Below, piece by piece: positions 5,900-56,146 of a DNA stretch of 64,000 bases. Positions within the stretch are counted from its first letter, which is position 1. Every line of letters begins with the position of its first letter. Under the pieces are notes generated by a model. It ran no database searches, was not told the DNA's origin, and was given only the letters and a program-made list of their open reading frames with translations. A program made the position numbers and the translations under genes. The stretch comes from Laspinema olomoucense D3b (GTDB lineage Bacteria; Cyanobacteriota; Cyanobacteriia; Cyanobacteriales; Laspinemataceae), in the NCBI RefSeq assembly GCF_025370785.1, contig NZ_JAMXFA010000001.1, positions 235,902 through 299,901 of the forward strand, read 5' to 3'.

Positions 5900-6967
5900 G
5901 TGAGCATTAAGATTTTCTACGGGACTCCAGAGGTGGCCCCACGAATGGCAAATCCACGAATCATCAAAAACAACAAATTGAGTTTACGAATAGGGCAAAT
6001 TTACCGATGGATGGGAGTTTTTATCATTGTGTTAGCTGTGGTTTGCCTAGCTATTCCGGGGCGATCGCAAGATTCTGCCGGGGTGATGCGCTTGATGCAA
6101 ACCAATCAGTGCCAAGCCTGTATTCTGACCGATGCCAACCTGAGTAATACCGACCTCACCGGTGCCGATCTGAGCGGTTCTAACCTAACGAATGCCAATT
6201 TCCAAGGGTCCGATTTGAGAGGGGCCAATCTGACTGGGGCCAACCTCACGGGGGCCAACTTACACAAAGTCAATCTTCGAGGGGCCAATCTAACCGGAGT
6301 CAACCTCACTGAGGCGAATTTATCTCAGAGTCAGCTCGTGGGTGCAGTTTTATTTTTAATTAACCTAGCGAATGCAGACTTGTCCGAAGCCAATTTAAGC
6401 GGGACAGATCTCAGCCGCATCTACATTGAGCAAGCGAACCTCAATGGTGCTCAACTCCAGGGGAGCAATCTCACAGGTGCCGAACTCTTCGGGGTGACCC
6501 TCAACAATGCCAACCTCAGTGGGGCCATCCTCAATAGTGCCAATCTCAGTGGAGCCAGTGCGCGGCAAGCGTTCCTGCAAGGGGCACAGATGCAAGGCGC
6601 CAGTCTCAGAAATGCTAACCTCAGCACCAGTAACTTACGAGGGGCCTTGTTAACCCAGGCGGACCTCTCCGGTGCTGATTTATTAGATGCGGATATGCAT
6701 GGGGTTATTCTCAATGAAGCGATTTTGATTAATACCCAGCTCAGAAATGTCCAGCTTCAGGGAGCCAGCTTAGAGGGGACGATTCTCTCGGGTGCGGACC
6801 TAGAGGGGGCAATCCTCACGGGTGCCACCTTCCGCAATGTCGAACTCACGGGCACTAATCTGCGAGGGGCGGATCTCACTCAGATTGGGATTGAGAATGT
6901 AGATTTTACCCAAGGGACAATTTGTGACGCTATTTTACCCGATGGCAAAACAGCGCGGTGTCGTTAA
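5900..6967 (+). CDS. pentapeptide-repeat protein with an N-terminal transmembrane anchor
   Basis: Dozens of A(N/D)L(S/T)G(A/S) pentapeptides (ANLSNTDLTGADLSGSNLTNANFQGSDLRGANL...). GTG start at 5900; an alternative ATG lies at 5946. One TM helix (WMGVFIIVLAVVCLAI). Confidence 0.85.
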   Translation: MSIKIFYGTPEVAPRMANPRIIKNNKLSLRIGQIYRWMGVFIIVLAVVCLAIPGRSQDSAGVMRLMQTNQCQACILTDANLSNTDLTGADLSGSNLTNANFQGSDLRGANLTGANLTGANLHKVNLRGANLTGVNLTEANLSQSQLVGAVLFLINLANADLSEANLSGTDLSRIYIEQANLNGAQLQGSNLTGAELFGVTLNNANLSGAILNSANLSGASARQAFLQGAQMQGASLRNANLSTSNLRGALLTQADLSGADLLDADMHGVILNEAILINTQLRNVQLQGASLEGTILSGADLEGAILTGATFRNVELTGTNLRGADLTQIGIENVDFTQGTICDAILPDGKTARCR

Positions 6968-8258
6968 CCCCAGCAGGAACTTATGGGAGAGATCAAGAAT
7001 GCTCCGATTTCGGAGCAAGAACCCCGGAATCTGTACAAGTTTCAGTTGAGGAGTATGACTTGAGTCGTTTTTTCAGGTTGGTATAACGATGGGAGTCGTT
7101 ATTGGGTGTTAGTTAAAGGCGCTGCTGGGTTTCTCTCCAGTCCCAAGCCAGCGCAAGGACCCCGGCCCTGACTCAAAAATGCCTGAGTCAGGGCAATCTT
7201 TGGGGTAGGAATTTGCTCGGTTGACTGTTAAAATAATCGGCTGTGAACATTTTTGAATTGACTTGAACCCCCAAAACCGAGAGCCAGGGATTAGACATGA
7301 AATATTAACTTTAGGGGACAGCGCCTGCATTGAAGGTTGATTGCAACCTACTGAGTTATGACCTCGATTGTAGACCTGTAGCCAATCCCTATCAACCGGG
7401 TTGGATGAGGTCCAAAGTTGTTCAAATTTGAGCCTTAACCGGCCGGTAAAGGCAGCTTTCTTAGACGAGATTCTCTGGGGAGGAAAGCAGGGGAGGTAAC
7501 TTATAAGCCTACAGGGATTCCATGAACCGATTACCGTTCACCCTTGATTGCCTCGGGCGAGGGTTAGAATGCAGAGAATGTCGGGTAATCTAAATAGGGT
7601 AAATTTGCCTAGAAATATAGTTAAAAGAGGGGACAGTAAAAGCGATCGCCCGATGGAATTAACGGTCAATTGTAGCCAAAATTACTTTTTTGGAGCAGTG
7701 GGATGGGATATCTCTACGGGGTAAATCGATCAACAATGTCAACCCCCTGAGGATGTTATAACAGCCGAAGAGAGCAAGCTCTGAAAGCCCAAAAAATAGA
7801 AGCCCAGAGGCATTCCTTCCGGTGGGTGAGATTCAAACCCCACCCTTTAAGGGATCCGCTGCCCTCCGAGGAATTGAAGCGTCCAAACCGAGTCAATTCT
7901 TGGGCAAGAGCCGAGAAAATTTCCCGGCAACTGCATCGAACTGGGAAGTGGTAGGACTTGATCCTCGGTGAGATATCTGGAATTTCATTTGGGAAACCTG
8001 GGGGAACCCAGCCAAAAAACGGATCAATTTTCAATGAAAAACCGGGTAAACTATTTCCAAGGGCGATCGCTCCCCACGCATCCTAGACTATTCCCCCCTA
8101 TTTAGGGAACTTTTACCCCAGCGATCTCGGCTTAAATATTCAAGACCGGCGCTTTTAATCTGGCAAATTTTAGAGGGGGTTAACCGTGATAAGAACCAGA
8201 GTTCCGGGAGCGTCAAAGTCCGCCAAGAATAACCCTAGAGAAGTTCAGTATTCAGGTT

Positions 8259-8918
8259 ATGCTCACCTCCCGTAAAGTCAACTTAATTGGTGCTTGTCTG
8301 GGATTCGTAACCGTGGGTTTCGGAGCCTTCAGTAATCCCATGATTAATCCAGAAAGCCACACTTGCCCAAATGCCCAAACCCTCGGAGGCCAGATTTGCC
8401 GGGGACAAGTTCCTAAAGAAATGCCTGAAGAAGCTTGGGGTCAATTTGGAGCGGTGGCTTATCAAGCAGCCGCAGAAGTGATGAGTTCCAATAATGCTGA
8501 ACCGCAAGCTTTAACTGAGACTCAAAAACAATATTTACGCCCCCATTTTGGCGATTTAGTGGATCGGGTGAAAGTGGTTTATAATGCTACTTTAATGGAA
8601 GATTGGGTAGCGGCAAGTTTCAAAATTAATGTGGGTGAATCCAACGCTCAAGTTTATGGAAACACCATTTATATTAAAAAGGAGATGAAAGAACAGGACT
8701 TCGAGCAACTGGTCCTGCTCTCCCACGAACTAATCCACTGCCAGCAGCACGAACAACTCGGCAGCTTAGGAAATTTTGGCTATCACTATTTTAAAGAATA
8801 TAAAAAAGCCGGAGAAATCTACAGAAATAATAAATTAGAAGTAGAAGCCTTTGAGTTCGAGAAAGAATTTGCCCAAGGGTTGGCCAAAAAAATTCCTGGA
8901 TCTTATCGTCCAAGATAA
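8259..8918 (+). CDS. secreted DUF4157-like protein with HExxH metallopeptidase-like motif
   Basis: Signal/lipoprotein-like N-terminus (LIGAC). The stretch HFGDLVDRVKVVYNATL ... VYGNTIYIK ... LVLLSHELIHCQQHEQ fits the DUF4157 consensus (fGxDlsxVrvH ... Ifxxxx ... LLaHELtHVvQQ) as I recall it. Confidence 0.5.
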   Translation: MLTSRKVNLIGACLGFVTVGFGAFSNPMINPESHTCPNAQTLGGQICRGQVPKEMPEEAWGQFGAVAYQAAAEVMSSNNAEPQALTETQKQYLRPHFGDLVDRVKVVYNATLMEDWVAASFKINVGESNAQVYGNTIYIKKEMKEQDFEQLVLLSHELIHCQQHEQLGSLGNFGYHYFKEYKKAGEIYRNNKLEVEAFEFEKEFAQGLAKKIPGSYRPR

Positions 8919-9006
8919 CCGGGGTGGCAACGGCTAAATATTCAACGGGGCAAGGGGGATCCGGGCCACATAGAGAGGCAGGTACAGGGTAGTCACTCCG
9001 GAGGGT

Positions 9007-9420
9007 TTGATGCTATCGTGGAAGGAACAAATGGCCAGCTTAAACATCATCCCAACTCAAGACACTCCACTTGCACAAGCAGAACTTATGATTCGATTTA
9101 AACTTGCTCCGGCCCTCAGTTTAGCGTTAACGTTAGCGATTACTTCCATCCTCGCTGCGGCGCAACCTTTCTTGGGGATGGCTAATCTGAGCCAACCTGT
9201 GGCTCAGGTGACGCAAATTGCTCCATCCGGGGCGATCGCCACTCCCCTACATCCGAGTCTGCTGTCTCAAGTTTCCGGCAACTTAGCATCGGTATGGATG
9301 AGTCCGGAAATCCGCCATCAGGGGGCTTTAATTGCTCAGGGATCCGGAAGTGACCCGATCCGAGATGCACTGGGATGCTCCTGTGCAATCTGCACGGGGC
9401 AGTCACAAATCGAAGTTTAG
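9007..9420 (+). CDS. hypothetical small protein (137 aa)
   Basis: ORF only; the product has a hydrophobic/Ala-rich segment. It could be non-coding. Confidence 0.3.
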   Translation: MMLSWKEQMASLNIIPTQDTPLAQAELMIRFKLAPALSLALTLAITSILAAAQPFLGMANLSQPVAQVTQIAPSGAIATPLHPSLLSQVSGNLASVWMSPEIRHQGALIAQGSGSDPIRDALGCSCAICTGQSQIEV

Positions 9421-9485
9421 CAAAGAAACATCGCAGGGGAATCAGAGCGATTATATCCTTCAGATTCGCTCTGTCCTTTGCTGTT

Positions 9486-10889
9486 TTATGCCTCGGGATG
9501 CGGTTTTTCTGGGTCGGGTTTGGAGAGCGGAAGGATAACGCTAACGGTAGTGCCGAGATTAAGCTGACTGTCTACCCGAATCCAACCGTGATGATTTTCC
9601 ACGATCGCCCGGACGATCGCCAGTCCCAATCCAGACCCCGTAGAACCCCATTCCGGCGACTGGTGAGGTTCATGACTCCGCGCCGGGTCCACTCGATAAA
9701 AGCGATCAAAAATATGAGGCACCGACTCTGCCGGAATGCCGATTCCGCTATCTTTCACCGTAACTTGGACACCGCTATTGGCACTCGGGCGATTGCTCAC
9801 CCCGCTACATTCTAAGGTGATGGCAATTTGGCCCCCTTTCGCGGTGTATTGCAATCCATTACTGACTAAATTCGTAAACAGTCGCGCCAGTTGGTCCCAA
9901 TCTCCGGGGATGGTAAAATCCAGTCCCGGTTCAGTTTCTGGATCCATAAGGGGGGAGAGGGCGTGATTGCCGCTATCGGGCGGATCAATAATTTCTAATA
10001 CTAATTCAATGCCTTTTTCGGCGGCGATCGCCTCTTGTTCCTCCATCACTTCCATCAATAAGGCATCCATTGGCACAGGTTGTTTCCTCACTTTCACTAT
10101 GCCGCTATCTTGTCGCGCTAAAAAGAGCAAATCATCCACCAATCGTCCCATACGGCGCGTCAAGCGTTCGACTAACTGTAATTGCTGGCGATGGATGGGT
10201 GAATCTAATTCCGGGTCCGCCAGGGCTACTTGCACATTTGTTTGAATCGTGGCGATCGGGTTTCTGAGTTCATGGGAGGCATCGGAGGTAAACTGTTTGA
10301 GACGCTGGTAAGAATCCCGCACAGGTTTCATGGCTAATCCTGACAGTAACCAGGCGATCGCACTAATGGCAATTGCCATGAGGGAGGTTCCCAAACTTAA
10401 ATCAATAATTAATTGCCGAATCGGTTTGGTCACTTCAAACCAGGGATGACTGACTCGCAAATATCCTACCACTTGCCGTCCAATTTCTACGCGATCGGTA
10501 AATTGCCTCAGCAGTTGTCCTCCCGAAAGTTGTACCGTTTCCCCATTCTTTTTCGGGTGCAGGGGAATTTCTAAGGGTTCCCAAAGGGTAGACCACAATA
10601 ATTCCCCCGTGGGACTAAACCATTCTAAATCGATATGGTCATCTTCGACGGTTTTGGCATTGTTGCGGAAACTGGCGACAACATTTACAGTATATTGGCC
10701 GGTGTTGGGGTTTTCATCGATCGCCAGCGAGCGTTCCACCACTTCCACAACGTGCTTGAGGGTGTCATCAATGCGATCGATTAAGGTACTCCGCACATAC
10801 ACATAAAATCCCGTCGCAAACACCAGCAGCAACACTGCTGTGAGTGCCGCATACCAAATCGCTAACCGTCGGCGGGTGGCTTGAAACAT
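9486..10889 (-). CDS. sensor histidine kinase (2 TM, HAMP, HisKA, HATPase_c)
   Basis: H-box SHELRNPIATIQ. N-terminal TM helix, a second TM and HAMP around LGTSLMAIAISAIAWLLSGLAMKPVRDSYQRL. G2 box GSGLGLAIVRAIVENHHGW. Confidence 0.85.
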   Translation of the reverse strand: MFQATRRRLAIWYAALTAVLLLVFATGFYVYVRSTLIDRIDDTLKHVVEVVERSLAIDENPNTGQYTVNVVASFRNNAKTVEDDHIDLEWFSPTGELLWSTLWEPLEIPLHPKKNGETVQLSGGQLLRQFTDRVEIGRQVVGYLRVSHPWFEVTKPIRQLIIDLSLGTSLMAIAISAIAWLLSGLAMKPVRDSYQRLKQFTSDASHELRNPIATIQTNVQVALADPELDSPIHRQQLQLVERLTRRMGRLVDDLLFLARQDSGIVKVRKQPVPMDALLMEVMEEQEAIAAEKGIELVLEIIDPPDSGNHALSPLMDPETEPGLDFTIPGDWDQLARLFTNLVSNGLQYTAKGGQIAITLECSGVSNRPSANSGVQVTVKDSGIGIPAESVPHIFDRFYRVDPARSHEPHQSPEWGSTGSGLGLAIVRAIVENHHGWIRVDSQLNLGTTVSVILPLSKPDPEKPHPEA

Positions 10890-34744: not shown

Positions 34745-36781
34745 ATGAAAGTGTTTAAGGGATGGATGAAATTAGTTTTGGCTATGACATTGGTGGCGAT
34801 CGCTGCTGATCCTGCCATCACCCAGACAAACCAGTCGGATATCACAGGACCCCTAACTCCAGAGCCGGTATTACCTGTAGAAGAACCCCCTGTAGAAGAA
34901 CCCCCTGTAGAAGAGCCTCCTGTGGAAGAACCGCCAGTGGAAGAGCCTCCTGCAATTATACCAAGCGGAGATATACTCCCTTTAGAAACTCCCACAGAAA
35001 CTCCCACAGAAACTCCCACAGAAACTCCCACAGAAACTCCCACAGAAACTCCCACAGAGACTCCCACAGAGACTCCCACAGAAACTCCCACAGAAACTCC
35101 CACAGAAACTCCCACAGAGACTCCCACAGAAACACCTGGGGATAGCCCAGTAATCCCTGTTAACAGCCCAGGGGAAGTGCCAGCACCGATTCCCATTCAA
35201 ACCCTTGAACCAATTAACACTCAAGCGCCCGAACCCAGCGCCCCGGTTGTCATCCCGGAGAATCCCCAGGTTCCCCGTGAGGAGGAAGTTCCTCCAACGG
35301 TGGGTGAGAATAATCCAGAACCGGACCCCACCACAGAAAGTACCAATCCGATAGAGGGTCAGATTCTCGAAGGGGGTGATAGCACAACGGAAGAGGCACA
35401 ACCCATGACTCCCCTATCGGACCAAGAAGTCGATCGCCCGGGTTATGAAACTCAGTTAGCCGTTGCTGATGTTGGGGTGGCGGTTCAAATGTTGGAAGAA
35501 TTTCAGGCAATGGAGTTTAGCAATTATCTAGCGGTGGAGTTATTGGGGGAAACGGCGACTCCCGATGAAATTGCCCAAAAATTGTATGATTTGTGGCAAG
35601 AAACTGACAATAAGAGTGCATTTATTTATGTCTCAGCCTTAGCAGAGCAATTAGAACTGGTGATGATTTTCCCCCAGAATTTTAGAGTAGCCGGGGGCAG
35701 TTCAGACTTAGTGGTTTCAGCGGATTTAGCCCAAGGACTGATTGAGAGAACGAGTGAGGTAGCTGTTCGCCAAACCGTGCCAAATATCTCTCGGGAAGAG
35801 CTGATTGCACAGGTGCAAAACTTGCGAGCAGAACTGACTAATCCCAGAAGAATAAACAGCCAGAGTTACTTACCGATCGCCCAACAACTCTATCAGTCCT
35901 TGATTGCTCCAATGGAAGCACAATTGAAAGCTAATGGGATTGAAACCTTAGTTTTTTCGATGGATTCTGGGTTGAGAACCCTTCCCCTGGCGGCATTACA
36001 TGATGGCGAACAGTTTTTAATAGAAAAATATGCCGTTGCTTTAGTCCCCAGTTTTGGCTTAACTGATGTCACCTATTCTGATATCCGCAACCGAGAAGTG
36101 TTAGCGATGGGTTCTGCTATTTTTGAAAACCTCAATCCTCTGCCTGCGGTACCTAGTGAGTTGCAAAATATTGTGAGCGAACCCTGGAAGGGAATTGTTT
36201 TCTTGAATGAACAATTCACTGCCGCTAATTTCCGACAAATTAACCAGGAAAAACAATTTGGAATTATCCATTTGGCAACTCATGCGGAATTTCAAGGGGG
36301 AAATTTGGATAACTCTTATATCACGTTTTACGATGGCCGAGTCGGACTCAACCGAATTCGAGAGTTAGCCACGGAACTCGGGTGGAATACCTCGCAAAAT
36401 CCTCCCATTGAACTCTTAACCCTAAGTGCTTGTCGGACGGCAGTAGGAGATACCGAGGCGGAGTTAGGATTTGCGGGGTTAGCGGTGCTTTCTGGGGCTA
36501 AGGCATCCTTAGCCAGTTTCTGGTATGTTAGCGATGCAGGCACTCTGGGATTAATGAGTGAATTTTATTCCCAATTAGGGGAAAAACCACTGAAAGCCGA
36601 AGCTTTACGGCAAACCCAACTGGCGCTGTTAAGGGGAGAGGTGCGCCTAGAAAATGGGATGTTAGTTCTCTCTAATGGCAAAACCGTCCCCCTCCCACCG
36701 GAATTGGTAGAACAAAAAACGCCGAACCTATCTCACCCTTATTTTTGGTCGGCGTTTACTCTAATTGGGAACTGGAATTAA
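34745..36781 (+). CDS. CHAT-domain (caspase-like) protein with signal peptide and low-complexity PVEEP / ETPT tandem repeats
   Basis: The C-terminal half has the CHAT His/Cys dyad context (HLATHAEFQGG ... LLTLSACRTAVGD). The N-terminus is a signal peptide followed by (PVEEP)x5 and (ETPT)x~13. Confidence 0.75.
   Translation: MKVFKGWMKLVLAMTLVAIAADPAITQTNQSDITGPLTPEPVLPVEEPPVEEPPVEEPPVEEPPVEEPPAIIPSGDILPLETPTETPTETPTETPTETPTETPTETPTETPTETPTETPTETPTETPTETPGDSPVIPVNSPGEVPAPIPIQTLEPINTQAPEPSAPVVIPENPQVPREEEVPPTVGENNPEPDPTTESTNPIEGQILEGGDSTTEEAQPMTPLSDQEVDRPGYETQLAVADVGVAVQMLEEFQAMEFSNYLAVELLGETATPDEIAQKLYDLWQETDNKSAFIYVSALAEQLELVMIFPQNFRVAGGSSDLVVSADLAQGLIERTSEVAVRQTVPNISREELIAQVQNLRAELTNPRRINSQSYLPIAQQLYQSLIAPMEAQLKANGIETLVFSMDSGLRTLPLAALHDGEQFLIEKYAVALVPSFGLTDVTYSDIRNREVLAMGSAIFENLNPLPAVPSELQNIVSEPWKGIVFLNEQFTAANFRQINQEKQFGIIHLATHAEFQGGNLDNSYITFYDGRVGLNRIRELATELGWNTSQNPPIELLTLSACRTAVGDTEAELGFAGLAVLSGAKASLASFWYVSDAGTLGLMSEFYSQLGEKPLKAEALRQTQLALLRGEVRLENGMLVLSNGKTVPLPPELVEQKTPNLSHPYFWSAFTLIGNWN
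34872..34950 (+). repeat. 15-nt tandem repeat x5 (cctgtagaagaaccc; encodes PVEEP) inside the CHAT gene
   Basis: Seen directly in the sequence. Confidence 0.8.
34985..35136 (+). repeat. 12-nt tandem repeat x~13 (gaaactcccaca / gagactcccaca; encodes ETPT) inside the CHAT gene
   Basis: Seen directly in the sequence. The antisense strand yields a spurious GVSV-repeat ORF. Confidence 0.85.
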
Positions 36782-53143: not shown

Positions 53144-53725
53144 TTAAGCGTTTAATTTGGTTAACATTTGTGCTACTGTTGCACCGATATTTTCCACCGC
53201 TTCTTGCTTTTGGGGGTCGTTTAATGTTCCCGATTCCGTAAAGGCTTCAAATGCTTGAGGAATGGCTATTTGATGGGGTACCACAACCATACTAATATTC
53301 GCCAGGATTTCGCGCAGTTGAGCTAAACCCCGTAATCCCCCCAAACCACCCGGAGAGGTACTCATAATTCCCACGAGTTTGCCTGAAAAAGCTGCCAGCA
53401 TGGGTTCCCCCGGCGCGGGACGAGATACCCAGTCGATCGCATTTTTGAGCAGGGGACTAATGGTGCTATTATACTCCGGAGAAGCAATCAACAAGCCTTG
53501 GTGAGCAAAGAATAGCGATTTCAACTCCTGAGCATAGGGTGGCATTCCCTCTGCTGCTTCTAAGTCTTGGTCAAACAGAGGCATGGGAAAATCTCGCAGG
53601 TCAATATAGGTGACCTCTGCACCGGCTTTTCTCGCGCCATTGGCTGCAATTTGGACGAGTTTTTTATTAAAAGACGCTTCGCGAGCGCTTCCGGCAAAGG
53701 CGAGAATTTTTGGGGGATTAGACAT
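53144..53725 (-). CDS. NAD(P)H-dependent FMN reductase family oxidoreductase
   Basis: MSNPPKILAFAGSAREASFNKKL...SPEYNSTISPLLKNAIDW is the flavodoxin-like FMN reductase signature. The track ORF extends to 53773, but the internal Met at 53725 fits the family N-terminus. Confidence 0.75.
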   Translation of the reverse strand: MSNPPKILAFAGSAREASFNKKLVQIAANGARKAGAEVTYIDLRDFPMPLFDQDLEAAEGMPPYAQELKSLFFAHQGLLIASPEYNSTISPLLKNAIDWVSRPAPGEPMLAAFSGKLVGIMSTSPGGLGGLRGLAQLREILANISMVVVPHQIAIPQAFEAFTESGTLNDPQKQEAVENIGATVAQMLTKLNA

Positions 53726-53911
53726 CGTTACTCCTACGGTTTTGAGTTCAAAAACGAATGATTCAAAAGGCACTTAGCCCAGAAGTCATCATAGCCCATT
53801 TGTAGGCCAAATCGGGGTGGGATTGAATGGTTCTGATTTGATTTTGCTCCCCGACTCATCCCTTACAAGAGTAAGTTTTTACGCTCAGGGGATTGGCCTC
53901 ACATTTAAAAT

Positions 53912-54600
53912 CACTTCCGGTCCGATCCCCTCCCCTGTGTCTTGGGGAGGGTTGAACCTAAAAAATAGAGACCACCCCGTCCCTTCGGGGCACCCCTCCA
54001 AGGGAGGGGAATATGCCCCAAAATTCCCCTCCCTTGGAGGGGTGCCCCGGAGGGGAGGGGAATATGCCCCAAAATTCCCCTCCCTTGGAGGGGTGCCCCG
54101 GAGGGGCGGGGTGGTAAATTCTAGCTAGTAATCAAGTATTGAGCTATGCTTCTTTACTCAAAAGTATATGTCTCTTCCCAATCTAGACACCACCCCGTCC
54201 CAATCTAGACACCACCCCGTCCCAGTCTAGACACCACCCCGTCCCAATTTAGACACCACCCCGTCCCAATCTAGACACCACCCCGTCCCAATCTAGACAC
54301 CACCCCGTCCCTTCGGGACACCCCTCCAGAGGAGGGGAATATGCCTGTATCCCCGGCCAGATAAAGCGATTGAACAATGCAAAAATTAATTGGGCTGGGA
54401 GTATGAAACAGCCCTATCTTGCCAAGGGGAGGGTTAGGGAGGGGTCTTCTTGACGCCCTTAAGGGCGTCAAGAAGAAAGAGGTTTCCCCGGCCTAAATAC
54501 AGGCGCGATCGCCTCATGAGAGTGCGTTATGTGGTGATTGCCAAAGAGAACCCCACCCTAACCCTCCCCAAGACACAGGGGAGGGGACCGGAGGTTCAGT
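53912..54600. repeat. ~690-bp intergenic composite element bounded by ~35-bp imperfect inverted repeats (ccggtcc..tcccctcccctgtgtcttggggagg at 53917 and its reverse complement at ~54565)
   Basis: Seen directly. Between the outer inverted repeats lie a ~50-bp self-palindromic direct repeat x2 (53990-54116), a 22-bp tandem array (54179-54310), a second inverted-repeat pair (54423-54445 / 54551-54574) and a perfect 32-bp palindrome (54445-54476). Confidence 0.6.
54179..54310. repeat. 22-bp direct tandem repeat x6 (caatctagacaccaccccgtcc) with no spacers
   Basis: Six consecutive units seen directly, two with single-base variants (cagtctag, caatttag). Confidence 0.9.
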
Positions 54601-54658
54601 TAAGGGTAAAAAAACTACTCTTGTAAGCCAACTCATCCGGGAGTTATCTCCACTCCAA

Positions 54659-56146
54659 TCACCCACGATTGTCGATTTGCGCCCGCTGTAAGCGTCCGGA
54701 AAAGTCTACATAGACGGTTTTCCATTCCGTAAACACATCCAGGGCCGCTGCCCCCGCCTCACGATGTCCGTTGCCGGTTTGTTTGACGCCTCCAAAGGGT
54801 AAATGGACCTCGGCACCAATGGTAGGACCGTTAATATAAGTGATTCCGGCTTCAATATCCCGTATGGCTTGAAAGGCCCGATTCACATCGCGAGTATAAA
54901 CCGAGGAAGATAAACCGTAGGAGGTATCATTGAGAATGGCGATCGCCTCCTCAAAGGAAGAAATTTCTATCAACGCTACCACCGGGCCAAAAATCTCTTC
55001 CCGCGCCACCCGCATATTCGGCATCACCCCATCCAGGATAGTGGGTTCAAAAAAGAAGCCTCCCGTGAGGGTTCCCTCCGTTGTGCGATTGCCGCCGATT
55101 AAAATTTTTGCTCCCTCTTGATGGGCGATTTTGATATACTCTTCAATGGTATTCAATTGCGTGGCATTGACAATCGGCCCGATGTCGGTATGGGGGTCTG
55201 TTCCGGGACCCAAACGGAGTTCCCGAGTGCGATCTAGCAGCATTTTGGTAAACTTATCCTTAATATCTCGATGCAGCAGGAGGCGACTGGTAGCGGTGCA
55301 CCGTTGCCCACTCGTGCCAAAAGCGCCCCAGATTGCGCCTTCCAAGGCTAATTCTAAATCTGCATCTTCCATCACCACCTGGGCATTTTTTCCTCCCAGT
55401 TCTAAACAAACCCGCTTGTGCTGTTTGGCGCAGATTGCCGCCACTTCTGCGCCGGTTTGTGAGGACCCGGTTAATGAAATTAAATTGACGTCACGATGTT
55501 CTACCAAGGCTTTTCCCGCTTCTTCTCCCAACCCATGCACCAGGTTAACGACACCCGGGGGAAATCCGGCATCATGGAAAACTTCAAACAGCAAGTGAGT
55601 CACCGCCGGAGTATCTTCCGACGGTTTCAGGACGATGGTATTGCCGCAGACTAAGGCAGGCATGGCTTTCCAACAGGGAATGGCAATGGGAAAGTTCCAA
55701 GGGGTGATTAAACCACAGACGCCGATCGGCATTCGCACAGTCATGGCAAATTTATTATCCATTTCCGAGGTGGTGGTTTGCCCGAACAGACGGCGACCTT
55801 CTCCGGCATAATAAAAGGCGCAGTCAATGCCTTCTTGGACATCTCCATTGGCTTCAGTCAGGGGTTTTCCCATTTCTTGGCTCATTAAATAGGCGAGTTC
55901 GGCTTTGCGATCGCACAATAATTCCCCGAAGCGGTATAAAAATTCGGCCCGTTCGGGTGCCGGAACTCGTCGCCAAGTGCGATAAGCATGGCGGGCGGCA
56001 GTCACGGCCATTTCTATATCAATATCGCCCGATCGCCCAAAGGTGGCAACCAGTTCGCGCCAGTGGGCGGGATTGCGACTTTCCATTGTTTCCCCAGAGG
56101 CGGGGGGCAACCAGTGACCATCAATATAATTCAGGCAAGTGTGCAT
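54659..56146 (-). CDS. NAD(P)-dependent aldehyde dehydrogenase
   Basis: Catalytic Glu motif LELGGKNA and catalytic Cys motif [10 protein letters not shown]. 495 aa. Confidence 0.85.

Follow-up and report, generated by a model that had tools for sequence, protein, structure and literature searches.

Nested BoxC/PIT/TM modules in an intergenic spacer of Laspinema olomoucense D3b and the association of such modules with DUF559 endonuclease genes

We characterized a repeat-dense intergenic region of the cyanobacterium Laspinema olomoucense D3b, which lies in a 64,000-nucleotide stretch of contig NZ_JAMXFA010000001.1 (hereafter, the window; positions are counted from its first letter). The spacer between the stop codon of an aldehyde dehydrogenase (ALDH) gene and the start of an FMN-reductase gene (53726-54658, 933 bp) contains a clade-specific hairpin repeat, E1, that holds three copies of one short module, V, and four copies of another, U, all sitting at the apex of E1. 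By sequence geometry, V and U belong to the BoxC/PIT/TM class of bacterial repeats, and the sole gene that recurs beside such modules in other genomes encodes a DUF559 endonuclease. The region is probably selfish or junk repeat DNA, in which BoxC/PIT/TM modules accumulated in E1 and form empty brackets of the cassette type, with a spread linked to DUF559. More tentatively, and with rather less than even confidence, we propose that BoxC/PIT/TM repeats in general could be the cis-acting ends of minimal mobile cassettes that cross phyla and carry DUF559 (YcjD in Escherichia coli) as their only gene; nuclease clades would be matched to their own modules, gene-less modules would be REPIN-like, and cassettes and solo modules would reside in restriction-modification genes and on viral DNA. 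The locus itself is without sign of a cellular function or an evident role for the two neighbouring genes.

V and U share one design, in which a pyrimidine arm is followed on the same strand by a purine arm complementary to it and then by a G-rich mirror block, with G answering G and with A or T answering A of the purine arm. A single DNA strand built in this way can double back on itself two times to give a purine-motif triplex. The general form of V is TCCGG-TCCCCTCCCC-loop-GGGGAGGG-TTA-GGG(T/A)GGGG and that of U is ACCACCCCG-(short perfect hairpin)-CACCCCTCC-NNN-GGAGGGGAAT, which on its G-rich strand keeps the mirror rule (CCCCTCC / GGAGGGG / GGGGTGG). According to Holder et al. (NAR 2015; PMC4666352), BoxC, PIT, and TM are the same element, whose second loop is either TTA (type A) or CCG (type B), and E. 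coli MG1655 has 23 TM copies, five in inverted pairs. The second loop of V is TTA, as in E. coli TM type A, and comparison of V_c with TM_ECO type A (CCCTCTCCC..GGGAGAGGG-TTA-GGGTGAGGG) revealed matching changes in all three blocks, the V blocks being CCCTCCCC / GGGGAGGG / GGGTGGGG versus CCCTCTCCC / GGGAGAGGG / GGGTGAGGG in TM_ECO. A generic triplex-motif finder gave six perfect matches in the region, one in the other 63 kb of the window, and none in 20 shuffles. Perfect triple blocks of 7 to 8 nt were found in U1, U2, U3, U4, and V_c; V_a has no third block, and the pyrimidine arm of V_b is decayed. Besides, the third-strand base opposite A was T or A in 130 of 130 V copies and never G or C, which fits the requirement of T.A-T or A.A-T triplets. 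On the strength of the mirror rule and this T/A-only position, U and V copies probably fold as a triplex or hairpin in single-stranded DNA. TM_ECO forms a stable triplex in vitro and is the only element for which formation of a purine-motif triplex has been shown (PMC4666352).

U is a variant of the class outside the published search definition, since its second loop exceeds 1 to 6 nt: the loop measures 14 nt and includes a hairpin in U1, U3, and U4, and it measures 9 nt in U2. This hairpin-in-loop design is new to the class, and in our judgement earlier searches of the ITxF type would have been blind to U modules because their loops were limited to 1 to 6 nt. In 142 distinct U copies, all six pairs of the linker hairpin covary (201 compensatory cells versus 48 in shuffles), with one G-U among about 600 cells, and the signal is lost on sliding the hairpin partners. 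The hairpins are 3 to 11 bp long, with loops that are mostly T-N-C on the C-rich strand, i.e., G-N-A on the G-rich strand. The box CCACCCC lies upstream in 137 of 164 U copies, though it was absent from the search pattern. A UUCG-tetraloop RNA reading of the linker hairpin was rejected, since a 3-nt loop is found on many stems and G-U pairing is absent. Modules were found in either orientation relative to genes, and the structure acts on DNA rather than on RNA. On viral contigs L294-L297, L302, and L311, we observed a further variant, CCTCCCCC-loop-GGGGGAGG-TG-(GGCCC-AGA-GGGCC hairpin)-GGAGGGGG, on both sides of DUF559 genes; because it shares the hairpin in the second loop, this design is general and not a local oddity. 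A third TM variant, CCCCCTTCCC-TGCCA-GGGAAGGGGG-TT-GGGGGGTTAGG, occurs elsewhere in the window at 30638-30673, where it is intergenic and directly 3' of a gene for an 882-aa protein (30677-33325, minus strand).

Both modules are widespread. The core of U (an exact scan with 19 specified bases) and that of V (23 specified bases) each gave at least 120 matches, the former in the genome collection and the latter in the metagenome collection; about 4 genome matches to the U core would be expected by chance in 596 Gb, by our own estimate under uniform base composition. Among the matches listed for the U core, the isolates belong to Chryseobacterium, Flavobacterium, and Serratia, and the metagenome-assembled genomes (MAGs) to Cyanobacteria, Chlorobi, Cloacimonadota, Patescibacteria, Acidobacteria, Firmicutes, and others. 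The flanks of these matches share the full U architecture, the search pattern having held the second hairpin only. Viral contigs yielded 22 stretches for the U core and 22 for the V core. In a cyanobacterial MAG (L017), a U pair 92% identical to that of the window, with 17 to 25 nt of flank included, lies at an unrelated locus, and the E1-V junction is found at a different locus in another MAG (L002).

We clustered the open reading frames (ORFs) within 400 nt of modules and found that DUF559 ranked first among the neighbour clusters of U as well as of V, and no other neighbour recurred. DUF559 (PF04480) is a Vsr-like PD-(D/E)XK nuclease with 3hrl as its nearest solved structure, and the corresponding NCBI model is E. 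coli YcjD. Among the matches listed, it lies near 15 of 120 U loci and 8 of 120 V loci, and the order is always module-gene-module. In complete cases, a (+) module lies 2 to 220 nt upstream of the gene and an inverted (-) module 15 to 91 nt downstream, with the third-strand boxes facing the gene. Minimal cassettes of about 445 bp were found in a viral contig and in Serratia; here the ORF runs into the downstream module, and in the viral cassette the stop codon is formed at the AAT end of the module.

The association was also seen from the protein side, using 38 loci of DUF559 homologues that were chosen by protein alone and are thus free of motif ascertainment. A generic TM lay within 300 nt in 18 of the 38 loci, and 14 of them had one on both sides, (+) then (-); of the 19 best matches, 15 had a TM. 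TM density was 2.15 per kb near the DUF559 gene versus 0.21 per kb further away, a tenfold difference. The arms of these TMs vary by clade with the mirror rule kept, and in many of them the second loop includes a hairpin. The identity among nucleases was 58% within the U-linked group and 44% within the V-linked group, compared with 30% between the two, indicating that nuclease and module go together. The ycjD gene of E. coli K-12 carries a degenerate module at its own 3' end and is separated by 168 nt from TM_ECO no. 9; the interval between the two contains a remnant duplicated from the 3' end of ycjD (NC_000913.3, 1351039-1351830). One published study of predicted programmed inversions names DUF559 genes among the targets that were enriched (PMC9881135), which fits a gene placed between inverted repeats. 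Our literature search found no paper linking BoxC, PIT, or TM with ycjD or DUF559.

We also observed U modules, either solo or as U-DUF559-U, that are embedded in long ORFs, keeping the frame and introducing no stop codon (Table 1, last row). Eight of ten tested host ORFs are restriction-modification genes (two HsdR, two N6_N4 methylases, three Type ISP/MmeI-like, and one HsdS), a count that is biased towards continuous ORFs. The module is used in all six reading frames, which implies that it is the DNA, not a peptide, that is constrained.

The arrangement in the window was compared with the same ALDH/FMN-reductase junction of relatives at three loci reached via homology search, namely, Laspinema palackyanum (L001), the MAG L002, and an assembly from a public run (L003). 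The ALDH of the window is 95% identical to that of L. palackyanum. The same spacer measures 99 bp in L003 and 264 bp in L. palackyanum, where only the outer element E1 is present; thus, about 840 bp of the spacer is lineage specific. In detail, 53814-54652 of the window corresponds to 3 nt in L003, and the 661 bp at 53932-54592 is specific to the window. Both flanks of the repeat region are collinear with relatives, and the 88 nt preceding the FMN-reductase start ('gatttggcc.acaaatgggctatgat...aggagtaacgATG') is common to the window, L001, and L003. In L002, a glycoside-hydrolase gene of family GH31 (7767-10109) is inserted between the ALDH and FMN-reductase genes, so the junction is a recurrent site of gene-content change. 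The sequence-only reading had described an 885-bp intergenic region (53774-54658) between convergent or divergent genes; it is indeed intergenic, but it spans the 933 bp given above, and the two genes are co-directional.

E1 has a long inverted repeat formed by 54593-54652 with 53848-53885 (core arms, 53862-53880 / 54609-54627), the core arms being an inverted pair more external than those previously noticed. Its counterpart at the same site in L. palackyanum is a hairpin element of about 169 bp, homologous to 53814-53931 plus 54593-54652. Further, partial copies of E1 follow the FMN-reductase gene in L001 (8341-8525) and L002 (10762-10834); at that position the window has a plain terminator-like hairpin only. 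V_a occupies the same position within E1 as a V module (L002 10831-10872) in the paralogous E1 copy. By triplex strand, the order of elements is V_a(+), U1(-), U2(+), U3(+), 60 nt, array, U4(-), 66 nt, V_b(+), palindrome, 67 nt, V_c(-). Brackets of the form TM(+)...TM(-) are therefore made by U3/U4 and by V_b/V_c, and V_c, as the right arm of the outer inverted repeat, closes both the V_b bracket and the outer V_a bracket. U2 stands back to back with U1, with a 10-nt spacer between them. The triplex of U1 on the minus strand reads CCCCTCC / GGAGGGG / GGGGTGG. V_b agrees at 92% with L002 10844-10879 over its loop, purine arm, TTA, and third strand, and its loop TTGCCAA is also present in the V copy of L002 and in the metagenome locus L152. 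A covariance model of U (R1), built from unrelated genomes, detected U1, U3, and U4 at 53 to 55 bits and the hairpin-less U2 at 35 bits over the 64 kb, and nothing further; it aligned each 22-bp array unit as the box plus AAT with both hairpins deleted, at 13 bits. The coordinates of all features are listed in Table 1.

Table 1. Features of the repeat-bearing spacer and its surroundings, with in-frame U loci of other genomes in the last row
Feature	Position	Strand	Description
FMN-reductase gene	53144-53725	-	Real ATG at 53725-53723; PF03358 FMN_red
Promoter-proximal region and 5' leader of FMN-reductase gene	53726-53813	-	Conserved; marks the lower boundary of the repeat pile and lies outside it
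E1, promoter-side part	53814-53931		85-88% identical to L001 7547-7698; no counterpart in L003 spacer
V_a	53921-53953	+	TCCGA-TCCCCTCCCC-TGTGTCTT-GGGGAGGG-TT; truncated after purine arm; left arm of 33-nt outer inverted repeat
U1 flank	53954-53970		17 nt, GAACCTAAAAAATAGAG; part of U-pair unit; equivalent flank GTTGAAACTCAGAAAAAGAG at L017 U pair
U1	53971-54012	-	+ strand, ACCACCCCG-[TCCCTTCGGGG]-CACCCCTCC-AAG-GGAGGGGAAT; R1 53.1 bits, E = 3.8e-12; finder match 53972-54009 (-)
51-bp tandem duplication	54002-54111		2.2 copies, 98%; yielded U2 and U3 from one module
U2	54023-54059	+	CCCCTCC-CTT-GGAGGGG-TGCCCCGGA-GGGGAGG; no linker hairpin; R1 35.5 bits; finder match 54026-54058 (+)
U3	54074-54115	+	Complete U; left of empty bracket; R1 53.5 bits; finder match 54077-54114 (+)
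A/T-rich unique filler	54116-54175		60 nt, inside U3/U4; no match in rest of window or fetched loci; no DUF559 remnant
22-bp array	54176-54311		x6.2, 96% matches; unit CAATCTAGAC + ACCACCCCGTCC = third-strand box of U4 plus its upstream flank; last unit enters U4
U4	54299-54340	-	Complete U; right of empty bracket; R1 55.2 bits; finder match 54300-54337 (-)
Unique spacer	54346-54411		Contains ATGAAACAGCCCTA, which also follows U pair in L017
V_b	54412-54445	+	CCCTATC-TTGCCAA-GGGGAGGG-TTA-GGGAGGGG-T; pyrimidine arm decayed
Perfect 32-bp palindrome	54445-54476		TCTTCTTGACGCCCTTAAGGGCGTCAAGAAGA; within V_b/V_c bracket; locus unique
Spacer with HIP1 site	54477-54543		GCGATCGC at 54505-54512
V_c	54544-54592	-	Complete V, TCCGG-TCCCCTCCCC-TGTGTCTT-GGGGAGGG-TTA-GGGTGGGG-T; 8 perfect triplets; finder match 54551-54585 (-)
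E1, ALDH-side part	54593-54652		75-78% identical to L001 7487-7554
ALDH gene	54659-56146	-	Aldehyde dehydrogenase
In-frame U loci, other genomes	L055 983-4918; L103 3-1469; L120 1853-4381; L037 1-1680; L028 684-3539 and 3935-5713; L012 2508-4175; L051 1776-3137		U modules or U-DUF559-U inside long ORFs

The repeats, palindrome, and tandem array named in the sequence-only reading are all present, with coordinates moved by 3 to 6 nt. Tandem Repeats Finder recovered both the spacer-less array, described as six 22-bp copies, and the tandem unit of about 50 bp (Table 1), and the perfect 32-bp palindrome was located as well. The outer inverted repeat lies at 53921-53953 / 54560-54592 (33 nt, 97%) and the inner pair at 54426-54451 / 54544-54569 (26 nt, 88%), and the motif said to occur before and after the array is a 52-nt repeat at 53966-54017 and 54294-54345 (92%). 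The exclusion of CRISPR holds, as the 22-bp units stand head to tail with a start-to-start spacing of 22. So does the view that no ORF fits here: the ORF at 53817-54128 belongs to no Pfam family and had one weak homologue among 5.8 billion proteins. Motif searches gave 0 matches each in 100 shuffles, and the motifs of the region did not recur in the remaining 63 kb of the window. A BLAST search of plasmids with the whole region gave no match, and a tRNA and tmRNA search of the region found none. The G+C content of the window is 48%, and of its 102 sites of the HIP1 octamer, one is inside the region.

The simplest account of the spacer is a sequence of three events. E1 would have entered the spacer in an ancestor shared with L. 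palackyanum, V modules would then have settled at the apex of E1, and a U-bearing unit would have arrived, after which slippage may have given the 51-bp and 22-bp duplications. It is quite possible that the modules serve as cis sites of DUF559 cassettes: the DUF559 enzyme might recognize the folded or duplex module and nick or cleave it, and repair or replication might then copy the module or the cassette at the DNA level. Gene-less copies would rely on a nuclease encoded elsewhere or would be relics, a working mode comparable to that of REPINs with a RAYT gene. Since the brackets in the window are empty of a DUF559 gene, we regard the copies there as non-autonomous. The 51-bp duplication and the 22-bp array are plausibly secondary, produced by slippage at structures that block the polymerase; PIT elements are said to block DNA polymerase in vitro in work cited in PMC4666352.

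A number of observations weigh against DUF559-linked spread as the source of these repeats. A search of the window, L001-L003, and L017 for a DUF559 gene or remnant found none, with filters off for the window and the region, and the interiors of U3/U4 (183 nt) and V_b/V_c (99 nt) have no similarity to DUF559. About 85 to 90% of module loci among the matches listed have no DUF559 gene nearby, and the U and V loci (at least 120 each) are samples and not censuses. Outside the region, the window contains a single TM-like module (that at 30638-30673) and no further U, V, or E1. In E. coli, ycjD is accessory: it was found in 3378 of 5426 complete genomes and is missing from 38%, and a BoxC-like unit is present in all 5426, at a median of 15 places; modules thus persist without the gene. 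Holder et al. stated that mobility functions were never found near TMs (PMC4666352). No clean cassette boundary was found. A comparison aimed at a clean empty site of ycjD in E. coli did not yield one, as the strain without ycjD carries a different, larger and variable gene island, and a single homing site in hsdR was rejected, as a solo U and a full cassette lie at different sites in two hsdR genes. In that E. coli strain, the other island ends about 45 nt from the position of TM_ECO no. 9. Target-site duplications, finally, were found neither at 53921/54592 nor at the ends of E1.

This last result bears equally on a rival reading, in which the region would consist of classical nested miniature inverted-repeat transposable elements (MITEs), i.e., derivatives of insertion sequences (ISs) moved by a DDE-type transposase with target-site duplications. 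The sequence-only reading had suggested nested non-autonomous transposable elements, which is borne out in that the region is non-coding, is composed of nested repeat families found elsewhere, and is inserted relative to relatives; the resemblance does not extend to a classical MITE. Inverted repeats of 33 nt and about 40 nt do stand at the borders, occupancy of the orthologous site by the region varies, and paralogous E1 copies lie nearby in L001 and L002. However, direct repeats are missing from the borders, DUF559 alone and no transposase-like ORF recurs beside U or V, the same cores of 19 to 23 nt occur across many phyla, unlike in IS-derived MITEs, and the inverted repeats are themselves three-block modules of 35 to 45 nt. 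A candidate 10-bp target-site duplication, GGGGAGGGTT (53944 and 54426), was rejected: the copy at 54426 is part of a separate V module, whose loop, TTGCCAA, is of the L002 type. We consider a MITE origin unlikely. Local slippage and palindrome amplification with no mobile unit, which had been offered as a fallback, explains part of the picture: the 22-bp array (96%) and the 51-bp tandem unit (98%) stem from recent duplication at the site, V_a and V_c are inverted copies with 97% identity, and the window has no other copies of U, V, or E1. It fails for the modules themselves, as hundreds of unrelated genomes contain the U and V cores within flanks of the same architecture, and as the U pair with its flank in L017 and the E1-V junction in L002 lie at other loci, so that a purely local origin is quite improbable.

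That the region encodes a structured non-coding RNA, or a cis-regulatory leader or terminator of the neighbouring genes, is very unlikely, even though very strong folding is predicted for the region as single-stranded DNA (z = -10.75), its place is the ALDH 3' untranslated region, ahead of the FMN-reductase gene, and a few terminator-like hairpins were found. Hairpin pairing is restricted to Watson-Crick pairs, G-U being virtually absent, the orientation of modules with respect to genes is not fixed, and close relatives lack the region but retain both genes and the promoter-proximal 88 nt. Rfam searches of the region and of ten module-bearing loci gave only sub-threshold matches to miRNA precursors, which are generic long hairpins. 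Moreover, studies cited in PMC4666352 are quoted as finding that purine-motif triplexes do not form in RNA and that PIT elements have neither promoter nor terminator activity. The proposal of a structured RNA locus is not supported. Co-option of the modules as functional DNA, e.g., as a barrier to replication or transcription, a site for nucleoid proteins, an insulator separating the two genes, or a hot spot kept for its variability, would be compatible with a selfish or junk origin. The pile lies exactly between a stop codon and a promoter, and E. coli TM loci are more rearranged between strains than controls, for which adaptive instability was proposed (PMC4666352); yet the region is not conserved between close relatives, and published tests saw no effect of TMs on gene expression and no gene-class bias (PMC4666352), which leaves co-option unlikely. 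Palindromes and tandem arrays are hard to assemble, and repeats might have been collapsed or chimerically joined; an assembly artefact is nonetheless extremely unlikely, as E1 and the V junction appear independently in L001 and L002, the structure of the U pair is the same in many other assemblies, and both flanks agree with relatives.

Other repeats in the window are coding or possibly so. In a gene for a 678-aa protein (34745-36781, plus strand), tandem repeats of 15 bp (x5.3, 34874-34952) and 12 bp (x12.5, 34984-35133) are part of the coding sequence, where they specify PVEEP x5 and TPTE x12 linkers close to the N-terminus. At 6219-6557, repeats of 15-bp and 30-bp period (consensus GCCAACCTCAGTGGA) mark a candidate coding region for pentapeptide repeats.

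Taken alone, the locus is ordinary though dense repeat DNA, and its value is that of a lead. Few bacterial repeats are as conserved and as widespread as those of the BoxC/PIT/TM class, which have lacked an explanation since the 1990s. BoxC is said to have been first noted near envM/fabI by Bergler et al. in 1992. The DUF559 bracket architecture, seen from both the motif side and the protein side, in many phyla, on viral contigs, and at ycjD of E. coli K-12, makes the spread of the class testable at the bench in a model organism, and the link suggests a function for a large family of the "domain of unknown function" type. Attention is also drawn to the hairpin-linker variant of the motif, which escapes searches with a loop limit, and to the unexplained insertions that lie in frame within restriction-modification genes.

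Compared with known systems, the modules resemble in-frame selfish insertions, of which the Rickettsia palindromic elements are an example, in that U modules and cassettes elsewhere lie in frame in genes. The ShiLan-type endonuclease insertion in a phage methylase is a hidden, out-of-frame HNH enzyme (PMC11855218), whereas DUF559 is read in the host frame, and the copies in the window are intergenic. Bacterial MITEs are likewise small, non-coding, bordered by inverted repeats, variably present, and nested; the units of the region are much shorter and have no target-site duplication and no parent IS or transposase. A cyanobacterial example of a MITE is Nezha. The SDR of Nostocales (Elhai et al. 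2008) are reportedly very small palindromic cyanobacterial repeats that insert into one another, and by description, to which our comparison was confined, they are similar as tiny nested palindromic repeats and differ in that three-block mirror motifs were not described.

The closest relative is the BoxC/PIT/TM class itself, described in the 1990s as a palindromic E. coli repeat (BoxC; Bachellier 1999 and Hoyne/Maher 2000, as cited in PMC4666352). It shares with our modules the three-block design, the TTA second loop (type A) in the case of V, an intergenic location, the lack of strand bias, and frequent inverted pairs, and it is abundant in Enterobacteria and Cyanobacteria (PMC4666352) and found in variable loci. 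The differences are in the arms (GGGGAGGG or GGAGGGG here, versus GGGAGAGGG in E. coli), in the covarying hairpin of 10 to 37 nt that in U replaces a second loop of 1 to 6 nt, in the nesting of seven modules in one spacer with a derived 22-bp array, and in the DUF559 link, which is not in that literature. REP/REPIN-RAYT systems offer a further parallel: like the BoxC/PIT/TM class, they consist of short G/C-rich palindromes that often form inverted pairs and number tens or more in a genome, and in both one small nuclease gene is flanked by its own inverted repeats, which are also kept by genomes without the gene. U and V carry no GTAG or CGTC tag and have a third mirror block, and the gene that they flank encodes a PD-(D/E)XK Vsr-like nuclease (PF04480) in contrast to the Y1 HUH transposase (Y1_Tnp) of RAYT. 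The U and V cores, known from sequence alone, are near-identical across phyla, unlike the species-specific REP elements. Thus, the resemblance to REPIN-RAYT may lie in a shared working mode and not in membership of that family.

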